A DNA stretch of 36,465 nucleotides, taken from sequence record DRR378314_1897; one strand, given 5' to 3'. The notes beneath the pieces were generated by a model that saw only the letters and a program-made list of their open reading frames with translations, searched no databases and was not told the DNA's origin. The translations under genes were made by a program, and so were the position numbers. This document shows, one piece after another, positions 18,403 through 34,488 of the stretch; position 1 is the stretch's first letter; every line of letters begins with the position of its first letter.

Positions 18403-18418
18403 TTGCACACGTGTGCAA
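18403..18418. promoter_or_regulatory. Perfect 16-bp palindrome, LacI-type operator
   Basis: TTGCACAC|GTGTGCAA with central CG, in an AT-rich promoter-like tract (18350-18430), ~75 bp upstream of the ABC ATPase; a LacI gene lies in the same cluster. Confidence 0.8.
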
Positions 18419-18493
18419 AAAGTCCTTGATAATTTTGCTGACTTGGCCGACTGTTTCCTTGGCACCATCACTGGATGGTCAAAGGGGGCGTGC

Positions 18494-19549
18494 ATGGCTG
18501 AAATTCAACTGCGGAATATCAACAAGCGTTGGGGTAGTTTTGTCGGGGTCGAGAACTTTGACCTGACGATCGCAGACGAGGAGTTTCTGGTGCTGCTTGG
18601 GCCATCAGGTTGCGGCAAGACCACGACCATGCGGATGATTGCGGGTCTGGAAGATATCACTGAGGGCGAGATCATCATCGACGGAAAAGTGGTGAATGAT
18701 CTTGATCCGAAGGACCGCGATGTGGCGATGGTGTTCCAGTCCTACGGTCTTTATCCGCATATGAATGTCTATGAGAATATCCGGTTTCCGCTCAAGGTAC
18801 GCAAGGTAGATCCTGCGACACATGATGAACGTGTGCGCCGGGCCTCTGCCATGGTTGAGCTGGACGATTTTCTCCACCGCAAACCTGCCGAATTGTCCGG
18901 GGGGCAGCGTCAGCGCGTGGCCCTGGCGCGTGCCATTGTGCGGGAACCCAATGTGTTTTTGATGGATGAACCGCTGTCCAATCTGGATGCCAAACTGCGC
19001 GTCAGCACGCGTGCGCAGATCAAGAACCTCAGTCACGAACTTAAGGTGACCACCGTTTACGTGACCCATGATCAGATCGAGGCGATGACCTTGGCGGACC
19101 GTGTGGTGGTGATGAAGCAGGGCAAGATCCAGCAGGTCGGCACACCTACAGAGATCTACGACAACCCGGCGAACACCTTTGTGGCCTCCTTTATCGGCTC
19201 TCCTGCAATGAACCTGATGGATGGCGTCATTCGGGATGGGATTTTTGAAGGGGTGAACGTGCGGATTGAAGGGCTGAAGGCTGCGGATGGGGAGGTCACG
19301 CTGGGCTTTCGGGCAGAGGATGCAGAGGTGGCGGAAGCCGGGGCTGGGCAGATCAACGCGCCGGTTTATACAATCGAGTTGCTTGGCGATGCGGTGATGT
19401 TGGCGGTCAAGGCTGGCGGGCAGATGGTGTCGGTCAAGGCGCATAAGGAATATCGCGCCAACATTGGTGATGCTGTGTCATTTTCAGTGCCGCCTAACAT
19501 TTGCCACGTGTTTGAAAAGGCTTCAGGGGCGCGGATCAGCGTCGGATAA
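18494..19549 (+). CDS. CUT1 (MalK-type) ABC transporter ATP-binding protein
   Basis: GPSGCGKTT, LSGGQRQRVALARA, FLMDEPLSNLDAKLR, YVTHDQ, FVASFIGSP; start ATG 18494 after GGGGG. Confidence 0.95.
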   Translation: MAEIQLRNINKRWGSFVGVENFDLTIADEEFLVLLGPSGCGKTTTMRMIAGLEDITEGEIIIDGKVVNDLDPKDRDVAMVFQSYGLYPHMNVYENIRFPLKVRKVDPATHDERVRRASAMVELDDFLHRKPAELSGGQRQRVALARAIVREPNVFLMDEPLSNLDAKLRVSTRAQIKNLSHELKVTTVYVTHDQIEAMTLADRVVVMKQGKIQQVGTPTEIYDNPANTFVASFIGSPAMNLMDGVIRDGIFEGVNVRIEGLKAADGEVTLGFRAEDAEVAEAGAGQINAPVYTIELLGDAVMLAVKAGGQMVSVKAHKEYRANIGDAVSFSVPPNICHVFEKASGARISVG

Positions 19550-19625
19550 GAAGGGCCCCCTTGGGGGAAAGACAGGTGCATTCTTGCAAGGTGCACCCAA
19601 CTATATGCAACAGGGAGTTTGCAAA

Positions 19626-20846
19626 ATGATGTTGAAGAAACTAGTACTTGCGGGTGCAATTAGCCTGATGGGGACAACTGCATTTGCAGCCTGTTCCTAT
19701 GAGAATACCACTGAAATCAAAATGCTGTCTGCTGGATTTGAGGCATGGAAAGCGGTTGCGGATGCCATGGCGGAATGCGGGAATTTCCAAGCTGAGCTGG
19801 ATCAGGAATTCCGCACCAAACAGCCCTCAGCCTTTGAGGCGAACCCGGCGCTCTATCATCTTGGTGGGGTGTCAAACGGTACAGTGACGCCCTTGCTGAA
19901 CGCTGAAACCATCCGTCCGCTGGACGATCTGGTTGCCAAATACGGGCAAAACCTGTCTCCAAACCAATTGATCCGCATCGATGGCAAGATCATGGCCGTG
20001 GCTATGATGGTCAACACACAGCACCTGATGTACCGCGAAGACATCCTGTCCGATCTGGGGATCGAAACACCGACATCATGGGATGAAATCTACGCAGCAG
20101 CCGCCAAGATCAAAGAGGCGGGCGTTGTGGACCATCCTTTGGGTGCTACCATGAAGTCGGGTTGGAATTTGGCGCAGGAATTTGTGAACATGTATCCCGG
20201 TTTCGGGGGCGCGTTGTTCAACGATGACAACACCACTGCGGTGAATTCCGAGGCGGGACTGAAAGCGCTGGAGACCATGAAAGCGGGGATGACCTTTATG
20301 GATCCCGAAGTTCTGGTCAGCGATTCAACCTATGTTCAGCAGCAGTTCCAGCAGGGCAAGATTGCCATGGCGAACCTCTGGGCCTCTCGTGCGGCAGCGA
20401 TGAACGACGAAGCCGAAAGCCAGGTTGTGGGTAAGGTCAAGATGGCCGGTGCCCCTACCGCGATGGAAGGTGGTGCCCCGGCTACGACCTTGTGGTGGGA
20501 TGGCATCGTAGTTGCCGCCAATATCACGGACGAGGAAGCAGACGCCGCGTTCAAACTGGCGATGGAAGGCATGGACACCGAGATGGTTCAGGCCAACAAC
20601 GATGCGGCGATCTGGTTGATCGACGGGTTCACGCCGGGTCCCTTGTCTGAGGGCGCAATTGCCACGGCCACGGCCAATCCGGCACCTCCGGCCTATCCGT
20701 CCACCACGCAGATGGGTCTTTTGCACACTGCACTTGGCAACGAAATCCCGGCCTTCCTGACCGGCGAGCGCGACGCCGCTGCAACGCTTGTTGCGATTGA
20801 CGAGGCCTATACCACCGCCGCCAAAGAAGCTGGTGTGCTGAAGTAA
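19626..20846 (+). CDS. ABC transporter extracellular solute-binding protein (CUT1 family)
   Basis: Signal peptide MMLKKLVLAGAISLMGTTAFA after GGGAG; IRPLDDLV, LMYREDIL..LGIETPTSWDE, FQQGKIAM. Confidence 0.9.
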   Translation: MMLKKLVLAGAISLMGTTAFAACSYENTTEIKMLSAGFEAWKAVADAMAECGNFQAELDQEFRTKQPSAFEANPALYHLGGVSNGTVTPLLNAETIRPLDDLVAKYGQNLSPNQLIRIDGKIMAVAMMVNTQHLMYREDILSDLGIETPTSWDEIYAAAAKIKEAGVVDHPLGATMKSGWNLAQEFVNMYPGFGGALFNDDNTTAVNSEAGLKALETMKAGMTFMDPEVLVSDSTYVQQQFQQGKIAMANLWASRAAAMNDEAESQVVGKVKMAGAPTAMEGGAPATTLWWDGIVVAANITDEEADAAFKLAMEGMDTEMVQANNDAAIWLIDGFTPGPLSEGAIATATANPAPPAYPSTTQMGLLHTALGNEIPAFLTGERDAAATLVAIDEAYTTAAKEAGVLK

Positions 20847-20852
20847 GCTTTA

Positions 20853-20880
20853 GGGCAGGTCGGCCTGTTCCGACCTGCCC
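20853..20880 (+). terminator. Stem-loop after SBP gene (mRNA stabiliser / partial terminator)
   Basis: gggcaggtcgg-cctgtt-ccgacctgccc perfect 11-bp stem, weak T tail; common position in ABC operons. Confidence 0.7.
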
Positions 20881-20965
20881 ATTCTTGCGGTGCTGGGTTT
20901 CGCCGCAGGCATTCAGATGCCTGCTGCCAAGCTCATCCAAAACATGAAGATAGAAAGGGAAGTCC

Positions 20966-21991
20966 ATGAAATTCAAAACGTTCTTTGCCTTCGTGGCACC
21001 GTCTGTCTTTATGATGACCTTGTTCATTGCTTTGCCATTGGTGTCGGTTTTCATCCAATCCTTCCAGATCACCCAGCCGGTGATGCAACAGTTGGAGGTG
21101 GAAACCTGTACGCCCGGATTTATCACTCAGACCTGTGTGACCGAGCTGAAAACCGTGCCGATCATTGGTGATGATGGAAAAATACAGACCACCACCCAAT
21201 GGGTCGGTCTGCAAAGCTATCGCAATGTGTTGCAGATGGATAAGGTCTGGGAAGCGCTGTCATCCGGCCGCCTGGGTGACATTCTGCAAATCGATTTCTG
21301 GAAGGCGCTGCGGTTTACCCTGATGTTTACACTGCTCACGCTGCCGCTGGTGATCGGCGTTGGGTTGTTGATCGCGCTGACGGTGAACAATGCGGCCAGA
21401 GCCTTTCGCGGCCCGGTGATTTTCGTGTCTCTGCTGCCCTTCATTGTGACGCCGGTGATCGGGGCGCTGTCAATCTACTGGCTGTTTGTCGGCGACGGCA
21501 TTCTGACCGCGATGATGGAACGATGGAGCGGCACCAACATCTCGATGTTTGCGCAAGCCTGGACAATCGAGTTGCTGATGTATTTCTACCGGGTCTGGCA
21601 TGTCGCACCCTTTGCCTTTGTGATCTTCTATGCGGGGCTGCAAACGGTGAATATGGACACGCTGGAATCGGCGGTGATCGACGGGGCTTCCCGCTGGGAA
21701 CGGCTGCGCCATGTGATCATTCCGCATTTGATGCCCTTGATCGTTTTTATCGCGCTGATCCACCTGATGGATTGCTACCGGGTCTTTGACGAGATCATCG
21801 GCTTCCGCTCTCAGGCCCATGTGATTTCACTGCAATGGCTGACAGTTGATTTCCTGACACCAGATGATGCGGGCAACCGGGCAATTGCACGTGCCTCTGC
21901 CAGTGCCATGCTGACCATGATTGGGATTGTCTTTCTGCTGATCCTGCCACTGCGCCGCACATGGCGGGACCATAAAGGGGGCGCACACTGA
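20966..21991 (+). CDS. ABC transporter permease (MalF-type)
   Basis: WVGLQSY, FYAGLQTV....ESAVIDGASRWERLRHVIIPHL EAA loop. Confidence 0.92.
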   Translation: MKFKTFFAFVAPSVFMMTLFIALPLVSVFIQSFQITQPVMQQLEVETCTPGFITQTCVTELKTVPIIGDDGKIQTTTQWVGLQSYRNVLQMDKVWEALSSGRLGDILQIDFWKALRFTLMFTLLTLPLVIGVGLLIALTVNNAARAFRGPVIFVSLLPFIVTPVIGALSIYWLFVGDGILTAMMERWSGTNISMFAQAWTIELLMYFYRVWHVAPFAFVIFYAGLQTVNMDTLESAVIDGASRWERLRHVIIPHLMPLIVFIALIHLMDCYRVFDEIIGFRSQAHVISLQWLTVDFLTPDDAGNRAIARASASAMLTMIGIVFLLILPLRRTWRDHKGGAH

Positions 21992-23151
21992 TGAGCACCA
22001 CATCCAAAGCAATGCGCCAGTCCTTCGCCCTGCGCTTTTCGTCCAATGCCTTCCTTGTGTTCTGGTGCGTGATCGCCGCCTTCCCGATCCTGTGGATCGC
22101 TGTGATGAGCGTGAAATCTCCGGTCGATGCCTTTGCGCAAAACCCGATGGATGTGATCATGGGCCCCAACACGCTGGCGCGCGGTGACGGGCTGTCGATC
22201 CTTGATATCATCCTTGGCCTTGCGGTTTTGTATTTTGCCATCCGCTGGATGTTCACCCGGTTGCCCGCACTGGTCGCCCGCTACAGCCCTAGCGGCTGGA
22301 TTGTTCTGGGCTGGCTCATTGGCGCGGCGGTCTATGCGCTGGCGTTTCTGCTGGTGTTCTTTGGCCTGCTGCCGCTGATCCTTGCCCCCTTGAATACGGT
22401 GCTGGGCCCTTTGGGGGACCCTGTGCTTGGGCTGACAACACAGCATTATATTGCAGTCTGGGGCGAGAATGAGTTTTACCGCAACTTTCTGAACTCCATG
22501 CTGGTTACCGCCGGTGTCGTGACCATTTCCCTGACCGTGGGCACTTTGGCGGGGTATGGGCTGGCGCGGTCTGGTTCTGATCTGGCGTTCTGGCTGCTGA
22601 TCCTTGCACTGATTTTCCGGGCCCTGCCGCATTCGGTACTGGTCGCGGGGTATCTGCCTTGGTTCATCAATTCTGCGGAAATCCTGCGCCCGCTCTTCGG
22701 GGATCTCTCGCCAACACTCTATGGTCAGCCCTGGGCGGTGATTGCGGTGCTGGTGTCGATCAACCAGCCGTTTACCATCTGGATGCTGCGCTCGTTCTTT
22801 CAGAACATTCCCGCAGAGCTGGACGAGGCCGCACGGGTGGATGGCTGTTCACATTTTCAGGCCTTTCGCCGGGTGATCATGCCGGTGATGTGGCCAGGGG
22901 TCATCACAACGGGTCTGTTCAGCTTTCTGTTGGGGTACAACGATTACCTTGTGACGTCGTTGCTGCTGGATGCACAGAACCAAACGATGGTGCCCGCCAT
23001 CGCCGGTTACTTCAACCGCGAGACCACAACCACAGATCAGGTCGAAGCTGTGGCCGCAGCTGTGTCGATCACCGCGCCTCTGTTCCTGCTGGTCATGGTC
23101 TTCCAGCGCCAGATCGTCAGCGGCCTGACGGCAGGGGCGGTCAAAGGATGA
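21991..23151 (+). CDS. ABC transporter permease (MalG-type, with extra membrane insert)
   Basis: FLNSM, IPAELDEAARVDGCS.FQAFRRVIMP, QRQIVSGLTAGAVKG; 386 aa. Confidence 0.92.
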   Translation: MSTTSKAMRQSFALRFSSNAFLVFWCVIAAFPILWIAVMSVKSPVDAFAQNPMDVIMGPNTLARGDGLSILDIILGLAVLYFAIRWMFTRLPALVARYSPSGWIVLGWLIGAAVYALAFLLVFFGLLPLILAPLNTVLGPLGDPVLGLTTQHYIAVWGENEFYRNFLNSMLVTAGVVTISLTVGTLAGYGLARSGSDLAFWLLILALIFRALPHSVLVAGYLPWFINSAEILRPLFGDLSPTLYGQPWAVIAVLVSINQPFTIWMLRSFFQNIPAELDEAARVDGCSHFQAFRRVIMPVMWPGVITTGLFSFLLGYNDYLVTSLLLDAQNQTMVPAIAGYFNRETTTTDQVEAVAAAVSITAPLFLLVMVFQRQIVSGLTAGAVKG

Positions 23152-23157
23152 GAGCTC

Positions 23158-23202
23158 TTCTTCATCTTGCCCCTAAATTCCGGGGGCCGGGGCTGGCCCC
23201 GG
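23158..23202 (+). repeat. Short intergenic repeat, copy A, with GC hairpin
   Basis: ttcttcatcttgcccctaaattccgg 23158-23183 followed by ccggggc-tg-gccccgg 23187-23202; core recurs at 25147, 34546, 34580. Confidence 0.8.
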
Positions 23203-23233
23203 TCCGTCGCTTACCACCAGAGAAAGGACTGAA

Positions 23234-23764
23234 ATGAAAGGTTCCCGCCCCGAACAAGCCGTGCTGACGCGCGACACGGATATGTCCAAAACCGCACAGA
23301 CCCGCGCAGTGATCGAGAGCATGGTCGATGGGTTGAACGACCATACCATCGACGGCATTGGCGCATTTTTCCATCAGGACTTCCGGTGGATGGGCAATAC
23401 CGGCTGTGGCACCAAGGCGGGATTAAAGGCGTTTCAGGATAATTGGCAACGCCCATTTCAGGCGGCGTTCTCCGATAAGGTCTGCGTCGATGAGGCACGG
23501 ATGTTCATGGGCGAATGGGCTGCGGCCTTTGGCCGGCAAGAGGCGACACATTCGGGTGAATTCATGGGGGTGGCCCCGACCGGCAAACGTATCGAGATCC
23601 GCTATATGGATTTCTGGAAGGTCAGCGATGGCAAGATCGAGGACAATTGGGTGATGGTCGATTTCCCCCATGTGCTGTCGCAACTGGGGGTCGACGTTTT
23701 TGCCGGCGAAGGCTGGGAAGCCTTTGATCGCGGCGAGAAAACGCCACCGCGTCCTGATAATTGA
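23234..23764 (+). CDS. SnoaL-like ester cyclase / NTF2-fold protein (single domain)
   Basis: ATHSGEFMGVAPTGKRIEIRYMDFWKVSDGKIEDNWVMVD signature; AAAGGA RBS. Confidence 0.88.
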   Translation: MKGSRPEQAVLTRDTDMSKTAQTRAVIESMVDGLNDHTIDGIGAFFHQDFRWMGNTGCGTKAGLKAFQDNWQRPFQAAFSDKVCVDEARMFMGEWAAAFGRQEATHSGEFMGVAPTGKRIEIRYMDFWKVSDGKIEDNWVMVDFPHVLSQLGVDVFAGEGWEAFDRGEKTPPRPDN

Positions 23765-23776
23765 GAGTGTAAAGAA

Positions 23777-25105
23777 ATGGCGATAACCTATTTGAAACGC
23801 GGTAAGTCTGACGCGGAACGCAGCGATGATGATGCCAAGACAAGGGATGTTGTAGAGGCGACCCTGAAAGACATTGAGACCCGCGGAGATGCGGCGGTGC
23901 GCACCCTGTCCGAGAAGTTTGACAATTACTCACCGGTTTCCTTCAAACTGTCGCAGGATGAGATCGACGCTCTGATTGCGCGTGTGTCGCCGCAGGAGAT
24001 GAAAGATCTGAAGTTTGCACAGGAAAACGTGCGCCGCTTTGCACAGGCGCAGCGCGACCCCATGCTGGACATTGAAGTCGAGATGCAACCTGGCGTGATC
24101 CTTGGCCATAAGAATATCCCGGTGCAATCGGTGGGCTGTTATGTGCCGGGCGGCAAATTTCCGATGGTGGCCTCGGCCCATATGTCGGTGGCCACGGCCA
24201 GCGTTGCCGGTGTGCCGCGTATCATCGCCTGCACGCCCCCGTTTAACGGTGAACCCAATCCGGCGGTAATCGCAGCCATGCATCTGGGCGGGGCGCATGA
24301 GATCTATGTTATGGGTGGCATTCAGGCGGTCGGGGCCATGGCCATCGGAACCGAGACCATTGATCCGGTTCATCTGCTGGTGGGGCCCGGTAATGCTTTT
24401 GTTGCCGAAGCCAAGCGGCAATTGTTCGGCCGTGTCGGCATTGATCTGTTTGCCGGTCCAACCGAAACCATGGTGATTGCGGATGACACTGTTGATGCTG
24501 AGATCTGCGCCACGGACCTGTTGGGGCAAGCGGAACATGGCTACAACAGCCCTTGCGTCCTGCTGACCAATTCGGAAAAGCTGGCGAAAGAGACCCTCGC
24601 GGAAATCGACCGGTTGCTGGGGATTTTGCCAACCGCCGGCACAGCACGTGTGTCATGGGAGGAGTATGGCGAGGTGATTGTCTGTGACACCTATGAGGAG
24701 ATGCTGGCGGTTGCGGATGACATTGCTTCTGAACATGTGCAGGTGATGACGGATCGGGATGACTGGTTTCTGGAAAATATGACCTGCTATGGTGCGCTGT
24801 TTCTGGGTGCGCGGACGAATGTGGCCAATGGGGACAAGGTGATCGGGACAAACCACACGCTGCCCACCAAGAAGGCAGGCCGTTATACCGGGGGGCTATG
24901 GGTCGGAAAATACCTCAAGACCCATTCCTATCAGAAGATCACCACGGATGAGGCGGCGGCGGAAATCGGAGCTTACGGATCGCGGTTGTGCATGTTGGAG
25001 GGTTTTGTTGGTCATGCAGAGCAATGCAACGTCAGGGTGCGGCGCTATGGCGGCGTGAATGTCCCCTATGGAGAAGGCGCGCCTGTGCAAGAGGTGGCCG
25101 AGTAG
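23777..25105 (+). CDS. Histidinol dehydrogenase homolog (HisD/HpsN family), substrate unknown
   Basis: [64 protein letters not shown]; Zn and catalytic residues retained; GDK rather than HisD GDY. Confidence 0.9.
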
Positions 25106-25172
25106 ATCGCGATGCGATCTTTGAGAGGCGCTGCCTCTCAAACTCTCCGGAATTTAAGGGCAAGATGAAGAA
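25104..25172 (-). repeat. Short intergenic repeat, copy B (inverted), with two hairpins
   Basis: ccggaatttaagggcaagatgaagaa 25147-25172 is the reverse complement of copy A at 25/26; hairpins agatcgc-gat-gcgatct 25104-25120 and tttgagaggc-gct-gcctctcaaa 25120-25142. Confidence 0.8.
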
Positions 25173-26218
25173 TGGATAGACCGAGTGTTCATAAGGAGCT
25201 GATCGCCCCGTTGAGAGCGGCGATGTATGATTTTGATCTCGCTGATGTGCGGGAGGCGTTGCATGCGATTTGCGCACCGGATGTTGTGTTTCGGCTGGCA
25301 TTTCCGTTTGAAACCACCGTAGGTGTTGATGCCTTTGTCGATAAGGTCTTTGTTCCTTTGTTCAAGGCACTGCCTGATCTGGAACGGCGGGATCATATTG
25401 TGATGGCGGGTCCGACAACGGCGGGGGATGACTGGGTCGGCTGCGGCGGGTTTTATTGCGGCACATTCACGATGCCTTGGCTGGACATTCCGCCGACCGG
25501 TCATCTGCTCCATATGCGGTTTCACGATTTTTATCGCGTGTTGGACGGAAAAGTGGTCGAGATGCAGGCGCTTTGGGATATTCCCGAGGTGATGATGCAG
25601 GCCGGGGCCTGGCCGATGGTGCCATCATTGGGGCGTGAATGGCATGTGCCTGCACCGGCCAGCAATGACGGTATTGTTCCGGGGCCTTATGATGCGGCTC
25701 AGGGTGCCGCAACCTGCCAGCATGTGGTGGACATGTTGGAACATCTGAAACGGCATCCCGCCCAGGGCGGGCCGGAAGTGATGGAGATGGCGCGTTTTTG
25801 GCATCCGCGCATGACGTGGTACGGGCCGTCGGGGATCGGTACCGGGCGTGGTATTGCGGGTTTTCGCAATTGGCATCAAATCCCGTTTCTGGCCGGCATG
25901 CCGGACCGGGGACAATATATTGATGAGATAAATTATCACTTCTTTGGTGACCGCAACTTTGCCGCCGTGACCGGCTGGCCCGATATGTATCAAACACTCA
26001 CCCATGGCGGTTGGCTGGGCATAGCGCCAACAGGCAAGAAGATCGAAATGCGGTCACTGGATTTCTGGCGCCTTGAAAACGGGTTGATCCGTGAAAACTG
26101 GGTATTGGTTGATCTTCTTCACATGTACGATCAAATCGGTGTTGATGTGTTTGCGCGTATTCGTGAGTTCAACAAGGCCCGTGCAGGGTTTGACCCAGAA
26201 ACAGGAATTGCGTTGTGA
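25172..26218 (+). CDS. Tandem two-domain SnoaL-like ester cyclase protein
   Basis: Two copies of the signature: WLDIPPTGHLLHMRFHDFYRVLDGKVVE and WLGIAPTGKKIEMRSLDFWRLENGLIRENWVLVD. Confidence 0.88.
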   Translation: MDRPSVHKELIAPLRAAMYDFDLADVREALHAICAPDVVFRLAFPFETTVGVDAFVDKVFVPLFKALPDLERRDHIVMAGPTTAGDDWVGCGGFYCGTFTMPWLDIPPTGHLLHMRFHDFYRVLDGKVVEMQALWDIPEVMMQAGAWPMVPSLGREWHVPAPASNDGIVPGPYDAAQGAATCQHVVDMLEHLKRHPAQGGPEVMEMARFWHPRMTWYGPSGIGTGRGIAGFRNWHQIPFLAGMPDRGQYIDEINYHFFGDRNFAAVTGWPDMYQTLTHGGWLGIAPTGKKIEMRSLDFWRLENGLIRENWVLVDLLHMYDQIGVDVFARIREFNKARAGFDPETGIAL

Positions 26219-26982: not shown

Positions 26983-27989
26983 TGGCGAAAGTGACTTCTA
27001 TTGATGTGGCAGCGCTGGCAGGGGTCAGCCGTTCGGCGGTGAGCCGGGTGTTTACGCCGGGGGCAAGCGTCAGCCCTGCCACAGCCTCAAAGGTGCGGGC
27101 GGCGGCGCGGGCGTTGGGCTATCGCCCCAATGTGCTGGCGCGCAGCCTGATCACCGGGCGCAGCCGGATAATCGGCCTGGTCGTCGCCTACCTTGAGAAC
27201 CAGTTTTACCCCGAAGCCATTGAACGCTTGTCCAAAAGCCTGCAAGAACAAGGGTATCACGTGCTGGTGTTTATGGCCTCCAACGATGGTGCTGCCACCC
27301 AGACGGTGATTGATGAGTTGCTGGATTATCAGGTGGACGGGATTGTGATCGCCTCGGTCGGGGTCTCCAATGACCTGACGCGGCGCTGTGAAGATGCGGG
27401 CATCCCGATTGTCCTGTTTAACCGGGACCAGTTCGATGACCGGCTGTCCAGTGTCACCTCTGACAATATGGCCGGCGGACGCAAACTGGCAGAGTTTCTG
27501 CTGGCGGGCGGGCACCGGCGCATCGGGCATATTGCCGGATGGGAAGGGGCCTCGACGCAGATAGACCGCGAGGCGGGCTTTAAATCGGGCTTGATGGCGG
27601 GCGGTGTCAAACTGGCCACGCGCACCATCGGAAATTTCGATTATGAGACTGCACAGGAAGCCACCCGTGCCATGTTTGACCGGGACGACCCGCCTGAAGC
27701 GGTGTTTGTGACCAATGATCATATGGCCTTTGCCGTGATGGATGTGCTGCGTTTCGAATTGGGGATTTCTGTGCCGCAGGAGGTCTCGGTGGTTGGCTAT
27801 GATGACGTGCAAATCGCGGCCTGGCCCAGCTATAACCTGACCACGGTACGCCAGCGCGCCAATGAAATGGTGACAAAAACCATCGAAGTCTTGATGACCC
27901 GGATTGAAGATGTCGATGCCCCTGCACAGCGCATCTGTATTGACGGGCCGTTGATCATTCGCGGCTCTGCCCGCACACCACAAGGATAG
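26982..27989 (+). CDS. LacI-family transcriptional regulator
   Basis: VTSIDVAALAGVSRSAVSRVF, LGYRPNVLARSL, SVVGYDD, LTTVRQ, LIIRGS. Confidence 0.95.
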   Translation: MAKVTSIDVAALAGVSRSAVSRVFTPGASVSPATASKVRAAARALGYRPNVLARSLITGRSRIIGLVVAYLENQFYPEAIERLSKSLQEQGYHVLVFMASNDGAATQTVIDELLDYQVDGIVIASVGVSNDLTRRCEDAGIPIVLFNRDQFDDRLSSVTSDNMAGGRKLAEFLLAGGHRRIGHIAGWEGASTQIDREAGFKSGLMAGGVKLATRTIGNFDYETAQEATRAMFDRDDPPEAVFVTNDHMAFAVMDVLRFELGISVPQEVSVVGYDDVQIAAWPSYNLTTVRQRANEMVTKTIEVLMTRIEDVDAPAQRICIDGPLIIRGSARTPQG

Positions 27990-27993
27990 CGAC

Positions 27994-28962
27994 ATGCAAG
28001 GGTTTGCCCCCAAATTCAAAGACTTCCCCGATTATATCATCGGCATCACCAAGGAAATCTGGGAGGATCGCGGCATTGCGACCCTGCATCAGTATTACTC
28101 TGACGATATCGTTGTGCGCTCGCCCGGCTCGGTGGTGAATGGCAATGAAAAGGTGATCGGCGCAACAATGGCGACATTGGCGGAATTTCCTGACCGTACC
28201 TTGCTGGGTGAAGATGTAATCTGGTCGGGCACCCCCGAAGAGGGCATGTTGTCTTCGCATCGTTTGTTGTCGACAGCGACCCATATGAATGACGGGATGT
28301 ATGGCGCGGCGACAGGGAAAAAGCTGGTTTACCGGATTCTGGCGGATTGCCATGCGATCAATAACCAGATCAACGATGAATGGCTGATCCGGGATCAGGG
28401 CGCAATTGTGCGCCAGATGGGCTGGGAGCCGAAACAATATGCCGCCGATCTGATTGAACGCGAGGGCGGGGCGGAAAACTGTGTGCAACCCTTGACGCCC
28501 GCGATTGACCAGCCGGGACCCTATAAGGGGCGCGGCAATGACAACGAGTGGGGGGCGAAATACGCGGACATCCTGACGGGGATTATGGGGGCTGATATGG
28601 CGCTGATCCCAACTGAATATGACCGTGCAGTAGTGACAGAGTATCCCGGTGGCATGACCGGGCATAGCCATGCCTCGGTGGATGGATTCTGGATGGGGTT
28701 GCGGGCATCCTTTCCCAATGCGAAGTTCCAGATTGATCACGTGATTGGCCGGGACGATCCCTTGATGCCGCCACGGGCAGCGGTACGCTGGTCCCTGACA
28801 GGTAAACATGACGGTTGGGGGGCGTTTGGCACACCGACGGGTAAGGATGTTTATGTGCTGGGGATCAGCCATGCTGAATTCGGCCCTTGGGGGCTGCGGC
28901 GTGAATATACGATTTATGATGAGGCGATGATCTGGAAACAGATTTTGCTTCAAACCGGGTAA
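27994..28962 (+). CDS. Tandem two-domain SnoaL/NTF2-fold protein
   Basis: ATHMNDGMYGAATGKKL...INDEWLIRD and GKHDGWGAFGTPTGKDV...REYTIYD. Confidence 0.85.
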   Translation: MQGFAPKFKDFPDYIIGITKEIWEDRGIATLHQYYSDDIVVRSPGSVVNGNEKVIGATMATLAEFPDRTLLGEDVIWSGTPEEGMLSSHRLLSTATHMNDGMYGAATGKKLVYRILADCHAINNQINDEWLIRDQGAIVRQMGWEPKQYAADLIEREGGAENCVQPLTPAIDQPGPYKGRGNDNEWGAKYADILTGIMGADMALIPTEYDRAVVTEYPGGMTGHSHASVDGFWMGLRASFPNAKFQIDHVIGRDDPLMPPRAAVRWSLTGKHDGWGAFGTPTGKDVYVLGISHAEFGPWGLRREYTIYDEAMIWKQILLQTG

Positions 28963-28979
28963 GCTCAGGGAATGCTGAA

Positions 28980-29597
28980 ATGACCTCCTATGCAGACATC
29001 ATGTTCACCCCAGAGGTGCAGGCCGAACAGGCGCATATTGGAAGCAAGGGAAAATTCGACAGGCGGTACAACGCCAAGCAAGATGAACCTCTTGGTGCGC
29101 CTGAACAGGAGTTTCTGACCTCGCGCAGCACGCTTTACATTGCATCTGTAAACAGTGCCGGGTGGCCCTATGTGCAGCACCGGGGCGGCCCGGCTGGGTT
29201 TCTCAAGATCCTTGATCCATTCACCATTGGATTTGCGGATTACTTTGGCAACCGACAGTTGATCACCAAGGGCAATTTGACCAAGGATGATCGCGTGTCG
29301 GTATTTGCCATGGATTACGCGCGGCAAGCCCGTTTGAAATTGCAGGGCCATGCGACTCTGCAAAATGCCGAGGATGCACCCGATCTGGCGGCGCAGCTTG
29401 CGACCGAAGGTGAGGGGCGTGTGCAGCGGGTGATGACCATTCGCATTGTGGCATGGGACTGGAATTGCCCGAAGTATATCACACCACGCTTTGACACACA
29501 GGAAATGACCGCGCTGGTCGGTCCTGAATTGTCGCGGCTGGAGGCCGAGAATGCGGAGCTGCGCGCGCGGATTGCCACGTTGGAGGGGCGCACGTGA
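28980..29597 (+). CDS. Pyridoxamine 5'-phosphate oxidase-family (split-barrel FMN-binding) protein
   Basis: YIASVNSAGWPYVQHRGGPAGFLK, GFADYFGNRQ....GNL, DWNCPKYITPRF, C-terminal coiled coil. Confidence 0.88.
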   Translation: MTSYADIMFTPEVQAEQAHIGSKGKFDRRYNAKQDEPLGAPEQEFLTSRSTLYIASVNSAGWPYVQHRGGPAGFLKILDPFTIGFADYFGNRQLITKGNLTKDDRVSVFAMDYARQARLKLQGHATLQNAEDAPDLAAQLATEGEGRVQRVMTIRIVAWDWNCPKYITPRFDTQEMTALVGPELSRLEAENAELRARIATLEGRT

Positions 29598-29678
29598 TTG
29601 CGCAGGCCCGGTCCCTTGCCCCGCTGCATGGCCATTTGGGCAGCCACCGCGCGCGCCGGTTGAACCTGCGCCCGCCGG

Positions 29679-29710
29679 GAAGGGGTGTTTTGCGCCCAAG
29701 ACACCCTTTC
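29679..29710 (+). terminator. 14-bp intergenic hairpin
   Basis: gaaggggtgttttg-cgcc-caagacaccctttc, fully paired on the + transcript with two G.U pairs. Confidence 0.55.
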
Positions 29711-29732
29711 AATATTTTCAGGAATTAACCCA

Positions 29733-30704
29733 ATGACACCTCAAGACATGCAAGCCCGCATCGTGCGCTACGGCGATCTGCGCCCCTGTAAAACTGCCTT
29801 TATCGACGCCCATACGCCGGGCAGCGATCAAAAGGAAAACTTCACCATCATCGGTGGCGGCGTATCGGAAAGCCCCGATCAACATGTGCATATCTCCCTC
29901 CCGCACGGGTTTAACATCGGCGCGGCGGGGCAGCCGCCGAAATGCCGCAACTCGCTGCACAACCACCGCACAGCCGAGGTGTTTTTTGTGCTGAAAGGCC
30001 GCTGGCGGTTCTTTTGGGGTGAACATGGTGATGCGGGCGAGGTCATTCTGGAAGAGGGTGACATCTTTAACATCCCGACCAATATCTTTCGCGGGTTTGA
30101 GAATATCGGCACCGATTACGGGATGATCATGGCAATCCTTGGCGGGGACGATGCAGGCGGCGGTGTGATCTGGGCCCCGCATGTGATCAAGGACGCGCAG
30201 GCGCATGGTTTGGTGTTGGGCGAAAACGGCAAGCTTTATGACAGCAAACAGGGCGTCAGCCTGCCCGAAGGGGTGAATCCCATGCCGCTGTTGAGTAAGG
30301 ACGAACTGGCCAAGGTCGACACGCCCACCCCGATGCAGGTCGTGGGCGGCTATGTGCGCCGCTATCTTGATATGTTTGCACTGACCCAATCGGGCAAACC
30401 CTGCAAGGTGATCGGGGAGCGGGGCATCATCCGCGACAAGCCCGGATTTGAGGTGGATTTCATCACCCGCCATTGTGCAACATCGCAGAAACACAGCCAT
30501 GACCGTCCCTCTGTGCTGATGCCGATGCGCGGCCACTGGCGGGTTGAATGGGATGGCGGCAGCGCCACGCTTGCGCCCGGTGACACCATGTCTGTGCCTG
30601 AAAACCTTGCCCATTCCGCGGTGCCGTCGATGACAGGAGAGGCGTCATTGTATCATGTAATCTCTACCGGTGATCCTGCCGGGGCCACATGGACAGGGGC
30701 ATGA
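29733..30704 (+). CDS. Bicupin protein
   Basis: LHNHRTAEVFFVLKGRW...LEEGDIFNIP and KHSHDRPSVL...LAPGDTMSVPENLAH; start ATG 29733 after AGGA. Confidence 0.85.
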   Translation: MTPQDMQARIVRYGDLRPCKTAFIDAHTPGSDQKENFTIIGGGVSESPDQHVHISLPHGFNIGAAGQPPKCRNSLHNHRTAEVFFVLKGRWRFFWGEHGDAGEVILEEGDIFNIPTNIFRGFENIGTDYGMIMAILGGDDAGGGVIWAPHVIKDAQAHGLVLGENGKLYDSKQGVSLPEGVNPMPLLSKDELAKVDTPTPMQVVGGYVRRYLDMFALTQSGKPCKVIGERGIIRDKPGFEVDFITRHCATSQKHSHDRPSVLMPMRGHWRVEWDGGSATLAPGDTMSVPENLAHSAVPSMTGEASLYHVISTGDPAGATWTGA

Positions 30705-30705
30705 T

Positions 30706-31737
30706 GTGACGCTGGTATTTGACGGGCATAACGACGCGCTGGGCCGCCTGTGGTGCGCCAGCAGCGATCCGGTTGCGGATTTTGCCCGTCCCATCGGCCA
30801 TATTAACGTGCCGCAGGCAAAGGCCGGTGGGCTGGGCGGAGGATTGTTCGCCCTGTTCTCACCGCAGGAACGTAAACCGTTTGAGTTCAATGTTTTTGCA
30901 GAGGATGACCGTGATATCCCGCTGTCCCCTCCACTGGAGGAAGGGGCAGCCCTTGTGGCGGCCATCGGGCAGGCGGGGATCGCGCATGGTCTGCAAAACG
31001 CGGGCCATTTGCGGATTTGCACAGATGCGGCAACGCTTGCCCGCAGTTTTGTAGAGGGGCCACTGGCCTGTGTATTGCATCTGGAAGGGGCGGATTGCAT
31101 CGATCCCGATCTTTTGGCGCTGGATACGCTTTATGCATTGGGGCTGCGCTCGCTTGGGCTGGTCTGGTCGCGGCCGACAATTTTCGGGCATGGGGTGCCG
31201 TTTCGCCATGGCAGCGACGGTGATACCGGTCCGGGGCTGACGGTGGAGGGCAAACGGCTGGTCGCCGGTTGTCTTGAGCTGGGGCTGACGGTGGACACCA
31301 GCCATTTGACGATGAAGGGGTTTTGGGATGTCGCCGAGGCAGGAGCCCCGTTGGTGGCCACCCATTCCAACGCTTGCGCCATCGCCAATAACGCCCGCAA
31401 TCTGACCGACGCACAGCTGCGCGCCATCGGTGAAACCGGCGGCATGGTCGGGCTGAACTTCGCCAGTGTTTTTCTGAACCATGCGGCCTGGACCACGGGG
31501 CAGGCGGATCTTGACGATTGCCTGCGCCATCTGGATCATATGATTGCAGTCGCAGGTGAGGATCATGTGGGGCTTGGGTCGGATTTTGACGGGGCCCCTT
31601 TGCCACAGGGCATCGCGTCTGCAGCTGATTTGCCCAAGTTGATTGATGCCATGCGCCGCCATGGCTACGGCGAGGCGCTGATTGCCAAGTTGGCCCATGA
31701 AAACTGGCTGGATTTTCTTGGCCGGCAGTTGGGGTAG
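30706..31737 (+). CDS. Membrane/renal dipeptidase family (M19) amidohydrolase
   Basis: DGHND, HLEG, VDTSH, ATHSN, RNLTD, GLGSDFDG; GTG start 30706 after AGGGG. Confidence 0.9.
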   Translation: MTLVFDGHNDALGRLWCASSDPVADFARPIGHINVPQAKAGGLGGGLFALFSPQERKPFEFNVFAEDDRDIPLSPPLEEGAALVAAIGQAGIAHGLQNAGHLRICTDAATLARSFVEGPLACVLHLEGADCIDPDLLALDTLYALGLRSLGLVWSRPTIFGHGVPFRHGSDGDTGPGLTVEGKRLVAGCLELGLTVDTSHLTMKGFWDVAEAGAPLVATHSNACAIANNARNLTDAQLRAIGETGGMVGLNFASVFLNHAAWTTGQADLDDCLRHLDHMIAVAGEDHVGLGSDFDGAPLPQGIASAADLPKLIDAMRRHGYGEALIAKLAHENWLDFLGRQLG

Positions 31738-31741
31738 GGTG

Positions 31742-32656
31742 ATGCGCTTGTTGTCTGCCTTGATGTTCTGCATGACACTCTGTTCGGGAGCTGTTGCGCA
31801 AAGCTGGCAGGCCGATCTGTCCCGCGATGCGGCCTATCTCGCGGGTGATGTGTCCTTTCCGGGGCTTGGCATGCGTTTCACCTGCCATGCCCGCGCGCCG
31901 GAACATGGCAATGTGATCGATACAATCTGGTTTGAATCCACCATCGCGCCGCCTTCGCAATTTCTGATTGGTTTTTCGGATTCGCTTGTGCCGCTGGGAC
32001 CGCTGTATCGCGATGATCTGACGCTGTTTGTCGGGCAAACCGGATACCGGTTGCCACGGGTCAGCTGGAATGAGTTAAACAGCGGATGGGAGACCCTTGT
32101 AGGCGTTTCCGACAGGATGTTCGCAGCTTTGCCAAATGCCACCCGGCTGGTGTTGCAGGTGGGGAATACGCAAGCCTGGGAGCTGCCAGTGAACGGGCTT
32201 GCGACATCGTTGGCGCAGGCGCAGGCGCACTGCGCCGCAGCTTGGCAGGGCGCGGTACCGGCACCTGATCTGCGCCGCATGGCCGAGCGTTTTGCGGCCT
32301 CCAATTGCAGCGATTTTTTCACCCTTGGCCCGCAGGCAATCCGCACCGCCAATATCGACGGGGACGGCATTCCGGATATCGTTCTGGATTACAACGCCAT
32401 CACCTGTGACAATGACAACAAGCGGCCCGGCGTTTGCGGCGCATCACTTTGCTCTGTCGATATATTTCTGAGCAGGACCTTCGCAAAAACCGGCCAGCCC
32501 GAACAGCTGCTGGGCATGTCCGCTGAGCTTGTGCCGCTCAGCAACGGCAATCAGGCGGTTGCCACCAGTGGCAATCTCTCCATCTGCCAAAGCACGGAAC
32601 CCTGTGCTTTTTATTGGTATTGGGATGGCCACAGCTTCACGCAATTACAACAATAA
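31742..32656 (+). CDS. Hypothetical exported Cys-rich protein
   Basis: Signal peptide MRLLSALMFCMTLCSGAVA; ANIDGDGIPDIV Ca-loop-like motif; CGASLC and other Cys. Confidence 0.7.
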   Translation: MRLLSALMFCMTLCSGAVAQSWQADLSRDAAYLAGDVSFPGLGMRFTCHARAPEHGNVIDTIWFESTIAPPSQFLIGFSDSLVPLGPLYRDDLTLFVGQTGYRLPRVSWNELNSGWETLVGVSDRMFAALPNATRLVLQVGNTQAWELPVNGLATSLAQAQAHCAAAWQGAVPAPDLRRMAERFAASNCSDFFTLGPQAIRTANIDGDGIPDIVLDYNAITCDNDNKRPGVCGASLCSVDIFLSRTFAKTGQPEQLLGMSAELVPLSNGNQAVATSGNLSICQSTEPCAFYWYWDGHSFTQLQQ

Positions 32657-32668
32657 GGGCATTTACTC

Positions 32669-33799
32669 ATGACCATCAAAACCACCCATGTAGGATCCCT
32701 GCCGCGCAGTCAGGAGGTTGTGGATTTCATCTTTGCCCGTGAGAATGGCACCCCCTATGACACAGAGGAATTTGACATCTGCATGACCGCAGCGGTTGCG
32801 GAAACAGTGGCCCGACAGGTGGCGGCAGGTGTCGATATCGTGAGCGATGGCGAGACTTCCAAGATCAGCTATGCGACCTATGTCAAAGACCGCTATACCG
32901 GTTTTTCCGGTGACAGTCCGCGCAATGCGCCTGCCGACCTCAAACAATTTCCATCTTTCCTCAAACGTTTGGCCGATGGCGGCGGCACCCCGCAATATGC
33001 GCGGCCCATGTGCACCGGGGAGGTCAAGAGCAAAGGTCAGGGCGAATTGCAAAAGGACATCGCGAACCTGAAGGCGGCGATGGCGACACATGGGGGCGAG
33101 CGCGGGTTTATGAATGCGGCCTCACCGGGGGTAATCTCTCTATTCTTGCAGAATGATCATTACAAAACGCGAGAGGCCTATCTGGCCGCTTTGGCGGATG
33201 CGATGAAAACAGAATATGAGACAATTGTGGCCGCTGGTCTGGATTTACAGCTGGATTGTCCTGACCTCGCCCTGTCGCGGCATATGCTGTTTAATGATCT
33301 TACCGATGCTGAATTCCTCAAGATCGCGGCGGGTCATGTCGAGGCCCTGAACCACGCCTTGCAGGATGTGCCGCAGGATCGGGTGCGCATTCACATCTGC
33401 TGGGGCAATTACGAGGGGCCACATGTCTGTGATATCGGTATGGGCAAGGTTTTCGACACGCTGATGGCGGCGGATGCGCGTTATGTGCTGTTTGAGACTT
33501 CCAATCCCCGCCATGCGCATGAATGGACTGTGTTTCGGGATCGCCGTGCAGATATTCCTGACGATAAGGTGCTCGTGCCCGGCGTGGTGGATACCACAAC
33601 CAATTTTGTGGAGCATCCAGAGGTGGTGGCCCAAAGGGTTGAACGTTTTGTTGATATCGTTGGCAAGGAGCGGGTGATTGCCGGCAGTGATTGTGGTTTC
33701 GGCACTTTCGCAGGGTTCGGTGCGGTGGATCCCCAGATTGCCTTTGCCAAGCTGGGGGCATTGGCAGAGGGTGCGCGGCTGGCAGGAGAGCGGAGATGA
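32669..33799 (+). CDS. Cobalamin-independent methionine synthase II-like single-barrel Zn enzyme
   Basis: TTHVGSLPR, DIVSDGE, LQLDCP, HICWGN (H-x-C), LFE, PGVVD, SDCGFG; 376 aa, no N-terminal folate barrel. Confidence 0.9.
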   Translation: MTIKTTHVGSLPRSQEVVDFIFARENGTPYDTEEFDICMTAAVAETVARQVAAGVDIVSDGETSKISYATYVKDRYTGFSGDSPRNAPADLKQFPSFLKRLADGGGTPQYARPMCTGEVKSKGQGELQKDIANLKAAMATHGGERGFMNAASPGVISLFLQNDHYKTREAYLAALADAMKTEYETIVAAGLDLQLDCPDLALSRHMLFNDLTDAEFLKIAAGHVEALNHALQDVPQDRVRIHICWGNYEGPHVCDIGMGKVFDTLMAADARYVLFETSNPRHAHEWTVFRDRRADIPDDKVLVPGVVDTTTNFVEHPEVVAQRVERFVDIVGKERVIAGSDCGFGTFAGFGAVDPQIAFAKLGALAEGARLAGERR

Positions 33800-34488
33800 A
33801 CGACAGCTTGTTTGATCTGTTGAAACGCGTTGATACGCCCACAGTTTGCAATGCTATTGAGGTGGCGCAGGGTAAACGCGGGTTTGATGATTTTACCCGT
33901 GGCTCAATGCAATGTTCGGCACCGGGGGCTGCCATGGTCGGCTATGCCCGCACCGCACGCATTCAGGCGGTGAACCCGCCAACAGAGGCACCGGATGTGA
34001 TCAAGGCGCGGCGCATGGCCTATTACAAATACATGTCAGAGGGGCCGCGCCCCGGGGTGGCGGTGGTGCAGGATATGGATGTGCCAAATGCCATCGGGGC
34101 CTATTGGGGCGAGATAAATACCAATGTTCACAAGGCGTTTGGTCTGAATGGTGCGCTGACCGACGGGGTGATGCGCGATCTTGGCGATCTGCCGAACGGG
34201 TTTGTGGTTGTGGCCGGATCGGTAGGGCCAAGCCATGGATTTGTGCATGTGGTGGATTTTGACGAACCGGTGGAGGTGATGGGTATGGCGGTCGCGCCGG
34301 GCGCATTGATCCATGCCGACCGCCACGGCGCTGTAGTGATCCCGGATGATGTTATCCCGCGTCTTGAGGCGGCAATTGCCCAATTGTTCAAATCGGAGAA
34401 AGTGGTGCTGGACGCGACCAAGGGCAAGCGCATTGGCTTTTCTGATTTTGAAGCGGCCTGGGCTGCATTCGAGGCCTCGCGCACCTGA
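33796..34488 (+). CDS. RraA-family protein (HMG/CHA aldolase-like fold)
   Basis: TPTVCNAI, MVGYART, AYWGEIN, TDGVMRD, LIHADRHGAVVIP; ATGA overlap with upstream gene. Confidence 0.88.
   Translation: MNDSLFDLLKRVDTPTVCNAIEVAQGKRGFDDFTRGSMQCSAPGAAMVGYARTARIQAVNPPTEAPDVIKARRMAYYKYMSEGPRPGVAVVQDMDVPNAIGAYWGEINTNVHKAFGLNGALTDGVMRDLGDLPNGFVVVAGSVGPSHGFVHVVDFDEPVEVMGMAVAPGALIHADRHGAVVIPDDVIPRLEAAIAQLFKSEKVVLDATKGKRIGFSDFEAAWAAFEASRT

Follow-up and report, generated by a model that had tools for sequence, protein, structure and literature searches.

The DNA analyzed here, a stretch of 36,465 nucleotides from sequence record DRR378314_1897 (hereafter the window, meaning this stretch at its full length), carries at positions 18403-34488 a gene cluster in which a LacI-family repressor gene lies among genes for an ATP-binding cassette (ABC) importer and several enzymes. 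The cluster is a real, strongly conserved catabolic regulon of undescribed function, assembled from known enzyme families. Its general logic, namely LacI-repressed import and breakdown of an external compound, is very probably correctly recognized. The fuller statement, in which this compound is small, polar, and methyl-bearing, with mycosporine-like amino acids (MAAs), together with related gadusols, as the favored candidates, is offered tentatively and with less than even confidence. The supporting evidence comprises a regulated unit, a predicted HpsN-type oxidation site without the sulfonate contact, an apparently intact homocysteine and zinc site, and a probable terminal class II pyruvate aldolase.

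The gene set, derived from the listing of open reading frames (ORFs) and from Pfam and NCBIfam scans, consists of 16 genes between positions 18491 and 34488, all on the + strand. Neighboring genes share or overlap bases at four junctions (21991; 26215-26218; 26982; 33796-33799, ATGA) and are separated by gaps of 4-17 bp at four others (23764/23777, 27989/27994, 28962/28980, and 32656/32669). A terminator-like hairpin (18305-18323) follows the preceding gene on the 5' side of the operon, and a convergent gene of the enolase superfamily bounds the unit at its downstream end. Among the matches listed, the closest named homologs of the window proteins belong to Sulfitobacter. A scan using one genome per species yielded at least 581 relatives of the cluster's dehydrogenase, and the best 80 loci (84-94% identity) were taken with 10-kb flanks. 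Genes were then counted over the 63 loci with the full 21 kb, which are close kin and represent non-independent samples. The same gene order recurs across these loci: the importer genes were found in 59 (ATPase), 57 (solute-binding protein), 56 (permease 1), and 57 (permease 2), the single-domain SnoaL gene in 55 (its product being 79-91% identical in most loci), double-SnoaL genes A and B in 57 each, the short-chain dehydrogenase/reductase (SDR) gene in 59, the LacI gene in 60, and the bicupin gene in 57. Counts for the MetE-like (at least 50) and RraA-like (at least 51) genes are minimums, because the loci end 10 kb past the dehydrogenase gene.

These results bear on the initial annotation, which had described 16 co-oriented genes with tight junctions, a perfect palindrome in front, and a LacI gene inside, all of which the ORF, Pfam/NCBIfam, and palindrome scans confirmed. 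The genome-neighborhood comparison proposed with it recovered a 13-gene syntenic core in the 63 full-length loci, upholding its view of one co-regulated uptake and degradation unit that co-occurs across genomes. Of the 16 genes, those 13 are conserved members of the cluster; the remaining three, encoding a PNPOx-like protein (11/63), an M19-family protein (2/63), and a protein without a family (5/63), are local inserts. The families that the initial annotation listed are present, but its three SnoaL proteins contain five SnoaL domains and its title left the three inserted genes unnamed. The label "orphan" was wrong in the taxonomic sense, as the cluster is widespread. Moreover, many other genera (Ruegeria, Leisingera, Shimia, and others) carry three extra genes without a window counterpart: an alpha/beta hydrolase gene between the MetE-like and RraA-like genes (30/63 loci), a divergent double-SnoaL gene (C) upstream of the ATPase gene (36/63), and an Amidohydro_2 gene adjoining the latter (27/63). 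The route was also said to be complete, which does not hold, given that a fourth, double-SnoaL gene of the regulon sits elsewhere in the genome (see below) and that the window showed neither the alpha/beta-hydrolase gene nor the Amidohydro_2 gene carried by many other versions.

Regulation by LacI is indicated by the repressor gene itself (26982-27989), whose product combines an N-terminal LacI helix-turn-helix with a periplasmic-binding-protein-like effector domain (Peripla_BP_3; no NCBIfam equivalog was reached), and by the palindrome. The latter, TTGCACACGTGTGCAA (18403-18418), is a predicted LacI-type operator, perfect over its 16 bp and with a central CG, that occurs once in the window. 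It overlaps the -35 hexamer of a promoter-like site (TGCACA-18-GATAAT, 18404-18433, + strand), which is a consensus match alone, the count of such matches in the region being no higher than in shuffles. Because 21 of 100 shuffles matched the palindrome at three or fewer mismatches, a single palindrome in one window is not significant alone, and its weight rests on conservation. The sequence TGCAnnCGnnTGCA lies within 300 bp upstream of the ATPase ortholog in 63 of 67 loci, with 99 sites in the 20,100 bp upstream of the ATPase gene versus 5 in the other 1,376,872 bp (three of these five at other intergenic starts inside the cluster). It is often doubled upstream of the ATPase gene, with the sites 54 bp apart, and the exact core 14-mer precedes this gene in 16 of 90 loci.

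The regulon extends beyond the cluster. The nearest genome (G001) contains the 16-mer at two or fewer mismatches in three places (reversed control, 0). One is at the cluster, and a second, with an intact 14-mer core, lies 44 bp upstream of an unlinked gene for a 338-amino acid double-SnoaL protein; flanked by ntrYX-like and trkAH-like genes, this lone gene is about 1 Mb away from the cluster. The third (two mismatches) falls within a 340-amino acid ORF and was taken as a chance occurrence. A second Sulfitobacter genome (G133) likewise has an unlinked double-SnoaL copy 1.3 Mb from its cluster, with the exact 14-mer about 50 bp upstream. The unlinked protein of G001 is the counterpart of double-SnoaL C, encoded beside the ATPase gene in other genera (51-64% identity). 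The presence of the operator before the unlinked double-SnoaL gene in both genomes argues that the palindrome is a working LacI operator type and that the NTF2-fold (SnoaL) proteins belong to the function, as far as sequence can indicate.

The dehydrogenase bears on the chemistry and also raises the first alternative. This Zn/NAD enzyme (23777-25105; Histidinol_dh, E 7e-133) is a paralog within the HisD/HpsN family. Among solved structures it comes closest to those of HpsN (8v35, E 4e-113), with HisD scoring lower (E 6e-74). Active-site passages of the HpsN study describe a HisD fold with Zn and catalytic Glu318, His319, and Asp352, with His126 and Lys353 contacting the sulfonate and His126 setting dehydrogenases of 2,3-dihydroxypropane-1-sulfonate (DHPS) apart from HisD (PMC11382572). 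In the window protein, the positions aligned to Glu318, His319, Asp352, Lys353, and His359 of 8v35 are conserved, and the catalytic residues appear as invariant E319, H320, and D353 in the multiple alignment. The position of His126 is occupied by Met130, and by Leu in five distant cluster-linked orthologs and Ile in two further paralogs. With the catalytic residues and Lys353 kept, the enzyme would work like HpsN, and it is predicted to oxidize a primary alcohol beside a hydroxyl to the acid without being a DHPS enzyme.

A second pathway for DHPS or another sulfonate (cysteinolate or sulfoquinovosyl-glycerol) is implied by the automatic Joint Genome Institute (JGI) name sulfopropanediol 3-dehydrogenase, carried by 14 of 120 close homologs among the matches listed. 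The cluster does resemble HpsN-dependent DHPS catabolism (hpsNOP with tripartite ATP-independent periplasmic [TRAP] uptake and SuyAB, Xsc, or CuyA; HpsN 8v35 is from Cupriavidus pinatubonensis) in its HisD-family Zn/NAD four-electron oxidation, for which HpsN provides the best solved relatives, in its conserved catalytic and metal residues, and in its adjacent LacI-family and SDR genes, as in hps loci. It differs in the Met or Leu at the His126 position, in its ABC rather than TRAP importer, and in its additional NTF2, bicupin, MetE-like, and aldolase genes; Pfam/NCBIfam scans of the window found an SDR but no HpsP-type zinc-dependent alcohol dehydrogenase (ADH_N/ADH_zinc_N) and no SuyAB, Xsc, or CuyA among the 16 genes. 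Moreover, G001 has a separate canonical locus (L108, G001:C1:362000-380000, genes 6591-11409) encoding its own LacI, a TRAP DctM piece, an HpsN with His126 (46% identical to the window dehydrogenase), an SDR, and a zinc-dependent alcohol dehydrogenase, followed by a gene with a weak match to thiamine-diphosphate enzymes. The distinction from the DHPS pathway drawn in the initial annotation is thus borne out by the Met and by the separate hps locus. On these grounds, together with the HpsP and sulfolyase families missing from the window scans, DHPS and other sulfonates were rejected as substrates, and a sulfonate pathway is extremely improbable. G001 therefore holds two HpsN-family paralogs, as well as a third HisD-family gene that is the top scorer against the family model. 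A Roseobacter litoralis proteome paper lists two "hisD" spots, between which the paralogs are indistinguishable.

A second pointer to the substrate is the MetE-like Zn enzyme (32669-33799, 376 amino acids), which consists of one Meth_synt_2 barrel. His242, Cys244, Glu276, Cys342, Ser10, Glu62, and Asp196 are invariant across 15 orthologs. For MetE, passages of the published structural account assign Ser411, Glu462, and Asp577 to contacts with the homocysteine carboxyl and amino groups and His618, Cys620, Glu642, and Cys704 to Zn (PMC539065). Ser10, Glu62, and Asp196 align with matching spacing to the three homocysteine contacts, and His242/Cys244 align to His618/Cys620 of the T. maritima chain (32-residue numbering offset). 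For Glu276 and Cys342, the counterparts are the positions of the zinc-ligand motifs in 3RPD, with the Cys motif aligning to A. thaliana MetE as well. The protein therefore shares with MetE and with short MetE-like proteins (3RPD, 1YPX) the His-x-Cys...Glu...Cys zinc site and the Ser/Glu/Asp homocysteine contacts, but it differs from full-length MetE in being a single barrel. NCBIfam methionine-synthase models score it far below their cut-offs. Since the N-terminal (folate) barrel is missing, the methyl or alkyl group passed to homocysteine most likely comes from something other than methyl-folate, presumably the pathway substrate. An ortholog is present in Phaeobacter inhibens BS107, a strain for which fitness data from pooled transposon mutants are available (PMC5764234); it is not a general methionine synthase there, which fits a special, operon-bound role. 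Orthologs carry the automatic names epoxyalkane-CoM (coenzyme M) transferase, 2-hydroxypropyl-CoM lyase, and, once, enterotoxin. Many alphaproteobacteria (e.g., G806, G890, G1057, and G1107) also contain single-barrel MetE-like proteins at 37-59% identity, with up to four matches per genome, and the operon enzyme hence belongs to a larger, mostly unstudied family.

These two enzymes could also be read together as acting on a methyl donor that carries a diol, for example a 2,3-dihydroxypropyl-bearing quaternary ammonium or sulfonium compound or the deacylated head group of a betaine lipid. On this reading, the HpsN-like enzyme would treat the diol as HpsN treats DHPS, and the MetE-like enzyme would behave like a betaine-homocysteine methyltransferase. 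Consistent with this are the retained Lys353 and catalytic residues with Met or Leu for the sulfonate-binding His, the intact homocysteine site, and the presence of the cluster in small, low-GC genomes. However, the bicupin, the lactonase-like hydrolases, and the many NTF2 domains would be left without a role, betaine-type solutes usually use other transporter families, and no such diol-bearing methyl donor is known as an abundant metabolite. We consider this explanation improbable.

The end of the pathway is indicated by the RraA-fold protein (33796-34488), which resembles class II pyruvate aldolases in its Pfam match and in a residue alignment to 3NOJ. Its start is the ATG at 33796, overlapping the MetE-like stop by ATGA, rather than the TTG at 33691. 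For aldolases of CHA (4-carboxy-4-hydroxy-2-oxoadipate) and 4-hydroxy-4-methyl-2-oxoglutarate, mechanistic passages attribute enolate stabilization to Arg123, metal ligation to Asp124 and, as second ligand, Glu199, and the pyruvate pocket to Gly101 (PMC5065237). In 11 orthologs Gly106, Arg128, and Asp129 are invariant, and their partners in the alignment to the CHA aldolase 3NOJ are Gly101, Arg123, and Asp124; the gene is also the last in the operon, as expected of a terminal pyruvate-forming step. The protein is nonetheless distant from 3NOJ in sequence (profile E 0.004), its best solved match being 3K4I, an uncharacterized protein. Over 102 loci, 58 have only an RraA-type aldolase, 10 only an HpcH type, and 2 both (in these two the HpcH gene is at the locus edge, in L034 beside a second LacI-like gene). 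Below curated cut-offs, the substitutes of HpcH type come closest to the sugar-acid aldolases GarL, HpaI, and RhmA. This interchange of the unrelated RraA and HpcH/HpaI folds, which have like chemistry, is the strongest evidence that the predicted pathway ends in a pyruvate-forming class II aldol cleavage.

Ring opening would fall to the bicupin (29733-30704), in which an H-x-H-x3-E motif marks the N-terminal cupin and the C-terminal cupin is degenerate. Conservation is confined to the N-terminal cupin, where His77, His79, and Glu83 are invariant and an invariant Arg121 occupies the usual position of the fourth His ligand. The model (predicted local distance difference test [pLDDT] 84.1) matches the folds of MncA, quercetin dioxygenases, oxalate decarboxylase, and salicylate 1,2-dioxygenase at template-modeling (TM) scores of about 0.5; no solved structure was matched at the sequence level. 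The bicupin fold and H-x-H-x3-E are thus shared with C-C cleaving cupin dioxygenases (quercetin 2,3-dioxygenase, salicylate/gentisate 1,2-dioxygenase, and, by analogy, acireductone dioxygenase), which differ from the window protein in lacking its Arg for the fourth His and its degenerate C-domain.

The aldolase and bicupin invite comparison with the degradation of methoxylated aromatic or lignin-derived compounds through a lower pathway resembling gallate or protocatechuate 4,5-cleavage (lactonase, hydratase, and CHA aldolase). The RraA-fold aldolase with CHA-aldolase residues and the fold matches of the bicupin to salicylate/gentisate dioxygenases would suit such a route, as would the PcaD-like and Amidohydro_2 genes in many cluster versions. 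Of the latter, the PcaD-like alpha/beta hydrolase is nearest to 3-oxoadipate enol-lactonase and the Amidohydro_2 protein to L-fucono-1,5-lactonase, a sugar lactonase, both far below curated cut-offs. Of the 4,5-cleavage and gallate families, though, the LigK-like fold alone occurs in the window, and general scans of the window and of gap ORFs in distant loci found no LigAB/GalA/DesZ, LigC, LigI/LigJ, or folate O-demethylase; the LigAB, LigC, and LigM partners of CHA aldolase systems are missing. Nor did these scans reveal an extradiol dioxygenase, a LigC-type dehydrogenase, or a tetrahydrofolate-dependent demethylase. The importer is also of the sugar type, the cluster is found in streamlined genomes of open-ocean type, and the chemistry disfavors moving a methyl group from an aryl ether to a thiol when neither a corrinoid nor folate takes part. 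An aromatic substrate is therefore decidedly improbable.

The SnoaL/NTF2 proteins of the cluster comprise a single-domain protein (23234-23764; SnoaL, 4e-21) and the two-domain double-SnoaL proteins A (25172-26218; two Pfam SnoaL stretches) and B (27994-28962; Pfam SnoaL). All exceed the Pfam SnoaL gathering score, and their context is catabolic rather than a polyketide cluster. The double-SnoaL B model (pLDDT 89.2) shows two NTF2 domains, with Lsd19 and MonBI-MonBII as best fold matches, followed by SnoaL2 and AclR; an ESM Atlas look-up of this protein returned nothing beyond SnoaL/NTF2 clusters. Lsd19 and MonBI-MonBII similarly have two NTF2 domains in one chain, and each Lsd19 domain performs its own step. 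They differ from the window protein in that they are biosynthetic epoxide openers, and whole-chain comparison gives about 11% identity and TM 0.3-0.4. Outside catabolism, the cluster could be a biosynthetic, detoxifying, or signal-modifying cassette, in one version of which the MetE-like enzyme would open an epoxide with a thiol and the NTF2 enzymes would be epoxide hydrolases or cyclases. Database entries naming MetE-like orthologs "epoxyalkane--coenzyme M transferase" and the fold matches of double-SnoaL B to the epoxide-opening Lsd19 and MonB are in line with this idea. The database names are automatic, however, the contacts of the MetE-like enzyme suit an alpha-amino acid thiol rather than coenzyme M, and the combination of importer, LacI-type repressor, and terminal pyruvate aldolase is a signature of catabolism, which makes a non-catabolic role very improbable.

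Uptake is predicted to occur through a CUT1-type importer. Its MalK/UgpC-type ATPase (18491-19549; ABC_tran, 3e-34) has a regulatory OB/TOBE tail (OB_MalK and TOBE_2) and scores 457.7 bits against the UgpC subfamily, above the NCBIfam cut-off. The very divergent periplasmic solute-binding protein (19626-20846; SBP_bac_1, 2e-21) is followed by two BPD_transp_1 permeases (20966-21991 and 21991-23151, the second at 3e-21). The binding protein falls into three sequence variants across loci, at roughly 40%, 65%, and 85% identity. It has no NCBIfam match, and its solved relatives are remote (an unnamed sugar binder, E 1e-14; the sulfoquinovosyl-glycerol binder SmoF, E 1e-11; and maltose binders). 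In one distant cluster (L081), the TRAP binding protein has matches to many DctP and SiaP structures, which score nearly alike. By sequence comparison, neither of these binding proteins points to a ligand.

The importer lends weight to a different substrate class, i.e., an O-methylated sugar, sugar alcohol, glyceryl glycoside, or non-MAA C7 cyclitol. In that case, the product of the HpsN-like enzyme would be an aldonic- or uronic-type acid, the bicupin and the SDR (26215-26982) would resemble KduI and KduD in action, as isomerase and reductase, and the aldolase would cleave a 2-keto-3-deoxy acid. Beyond the LacI regulator, the CUT1 importer, and its UgpC-type ATPase, the best named family of the SDR is KduD (210 bits, below the cut-off of 338.85), and the sub-threshold affinities of the HpcH-type substitutes and the Amidohydro_2 protein described above also point to sugar chemistry. 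Set against these are the lack of a glycoside hydrolase, kinase, or dehydratase in the core and the free exchange of the transporter for TRAP, sodium:solute symporter (SSF), and major facilitator superfamily (MFS) types; nor is a precedent known in sugar pathways for five to seven NTF2 domains. We regard a sugar-type substrate as unlikely, although it deserves to be kept in view.

Returning to the reading that we favor, the substrate should be small, polar, and methylated, bear a -C(OH)-CH2OH group, and yield a 4-hydroxy-2-oxo acid on cleavage. The 4-deoxygadusol core of MAAs fits all of these expectations, and a substrate of the MAA or 4-deoxygadusol (gadusol) type, which the initial annotation had suggested as a speculative fit, is the best chemical fit, though as an identification it is a possibility that we would call doubtful. 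In the order that we infer for every step, LacI would occupy the palindrome, which covers the -35 region, and be released by the substrate or an early intermediate, and the CUT1 system would import the compound. Cofactor-free NTF2 enzymes (five SnoaL domains here and two more in the unlinked regulon gene) would strip or rearrange substituents, and in MAAs such hydrolases could free the amino acids. The HpsN-like enzyme would convert -C(OH)-CH2OH to -C(OH)-COOH, the MetE-like enzyme would transfer a substrate methyl to homocysteine, giving methionine, and the bicupin would open the ring, probably with O2. The RraA-like aldolase would finally split a 4-hydroxy-2-oxo acid into pyruvate and a second acid. 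Applied to 4-deoxygadusol, oxidation of CH2OH to COOH, removal of the 2-O-methyl, and cutting of the cyclic reductone between C2 and C3 would give CHA, atom for atom. As the substrate of RraA-fold CHA aldolases, CHA would yield pyruvate and oxaloacetate; if reductone cleavage instead released C2 as CO, citrate would result. One MAA molecule could in this way supply glycine or serine, a methionine methyl, pyruvate, and oxaloacetate.

Several points weigh against this scheme. The CHA or citrate outcome is our own paper chemistry, and we infer the sequence of reactions, the part that each NTF2 domain plays, and, from sequence comparisons, the link of every gene to the substrate. The bicupin could be an isomerase or a decarboxylase, judging from its model, because Arg replaces the fourth His and the generic fold matches include MncA, oxalate decarboxylase, and seed storage proteins. 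The SDR has no necessary role with 4-deoxygadusol, and the pairing of a LacI regulator and a CUT1 ABC importer is typical of sugar pathways. When aligned to full MetE, the MetE-like protein scores weakly (domain independent E-values 0.38 to 1.2e3), though with exact motif spacing. In the aldolase, Glu202 is invariant but falls opposite residue 201 of 3NOJ, two positions off Glu199 and in a low-scoring stretch, and the equivalent of this ligand is unconfirmed because of the offset. Four runs (shares 0.06-0.10; none a clear RNA match, three of the four guessed to be RNA) gave scattered low-depth contigs inside and outside the cluster, with no joints and no ends, that are uninformative on transcription or induction.

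The distribution of the cluster reaches well beyond close relatives of the window. G001 carries an identical double-SnoaL B protein, and a search with this marker found it in 22 of 401 genomes of a phylum sample and in 13 of 20 in the window's own family, reaching other families of the same class as well as another class of the phylum. Searches with MetE-like proteins at E ≤ 1e-60 matched 75 of 401 genomes of the window's class (window query), a tally that counts paralogs down to about 37% identity and one genome flagged as unpublished (G1002), and 17 of 400 genomes of another class of the phylum (L083 query). Among 28 regions taken from phylum- and class-level matches, about half contained a recognizable cluster. 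In these distant clusters, the HisD-like proteins are 63-82% and the MetE-like proteins 51-85% identical (two clusters being without a MetE-like gene in the stretch examined), and LacI, the SDR, the bicupin, and double-SnoaL A, B, and C are also kept. The transporter is swapped for TRAP, SSF, or MFS types, sometimes with an added TonB-dependent receptor. Two genomes of 1.4 and 1.6 Mb with 30-32% GC hold the cluster with a CUT1 ABC importer, and their HisD-like protein is 74-76% identical to that of the window.

Two further occurrences were observed during these comparisons. Two genomes of another class contain a smaller paralogous cassette (L084:9798-13415 and L087:6998-11719), with a HisD-family protein 45-46% identical to that of the window, two double-SnoaL-B-like genes, LacI, and an MFS transporter, which suggests a family of related NTF2-plus-dehydrogenase pathways. 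A contig labeled Nocardioides marinus (JAHVJD010000006.1; L034 and L044) has two roseobacter-type dehydrogenase copies (88-89% identity), and it looks like a mislabeled or contaminated assembly rather than an actinobacterial occurrence.

The three inserted genes are accessory. They encode a PNPOx-like protein of the FMN-binding type (28980-29597; Pfam/NCBIfam), a protein of the M19 membrane-dipeptidase family (about 30706-31737; Peptidase_M19, 3e-79; start inferred, the ORF opening at 30670), and the product of a 324-amino acid ORF with a signal-peptide-like N-terminus (about 31742-32656; start inferred from the translation) for which no family was matched. Between the PNPOx-like and bicupin genes lies a 14-pair hairpin with a T-rich tail (29679-29710, + strand), which could be an internal attenuator or an insertion scar. 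Upstream of the operon, and divided from it by the terminator-like hairpin, a gene at 16105-18282 encodes a 725-amino acid protein that fuses E1 alpha-like and beta-like domains of the 2-oxo-acid dehydrogenase or transketolase type; this gene has the same 5' position in Sulfitobacter and Roseobacter loci only. The Pfam neighbors in positions 1-15998 of the window are acyl-CoA dehydrogenases, a MatE exporter, dihydroorotate dehydrogenase, DUF1330, 5'-nucleotidase, an AraC regulator, an alpha/beta hydrolase, an MFS transporter, an SRAP peptidase, and a LysR regulator.

The searchable literature yielded no description of this operon (supplementary tables of transcriptome and fitness papers lie outside this coverage), in agreement with the statement in the initial annotation that it matches no characterized pathway. 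The homarine operon (PMC13236597) was considered and set aside as unrelated, as it comprises an FAD enzyme, a peptidase, and an aldehyde dehydrogenase. Passages of a review report that bacteria convert shinorine and porphyra-334 into mycosporine-glycine and 4-deoxygadusol; they also place MAAs in the dissolved pool and name no genes for this conversion (PMC3083659). Matched passages of a 2026 cyclitol review name gadusol and make no link from it to catabolism.

That the cluster is so strongly conserved, streamlined genomes included, points to a substrate common in seawater. Its identification would add a metabolite flux to models of the ocean carbon cycle and would assign functions to seven NTF2 domains, the MetE-like enzyme, and the bicupin together. 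Moreover, as the dehydrogenase lacks the sulfonate-binding His yet is automatically named for DHPS, homology-based surveys of hpsN may overcount DHPS catabolism. It is conceivable, although we would not call it probable, that the regulon is the missing bacterial route for consuming MAAs and gadusol-type sunscreens. If so, given that roseobacters, marine gammaproteobacteria, and streamlined low-GC alphaproteobacteria all carry the cluster, these UV-absorbing compounds would be a sizeable, uncounted carbon and nitrogen currency of the surface ocean.

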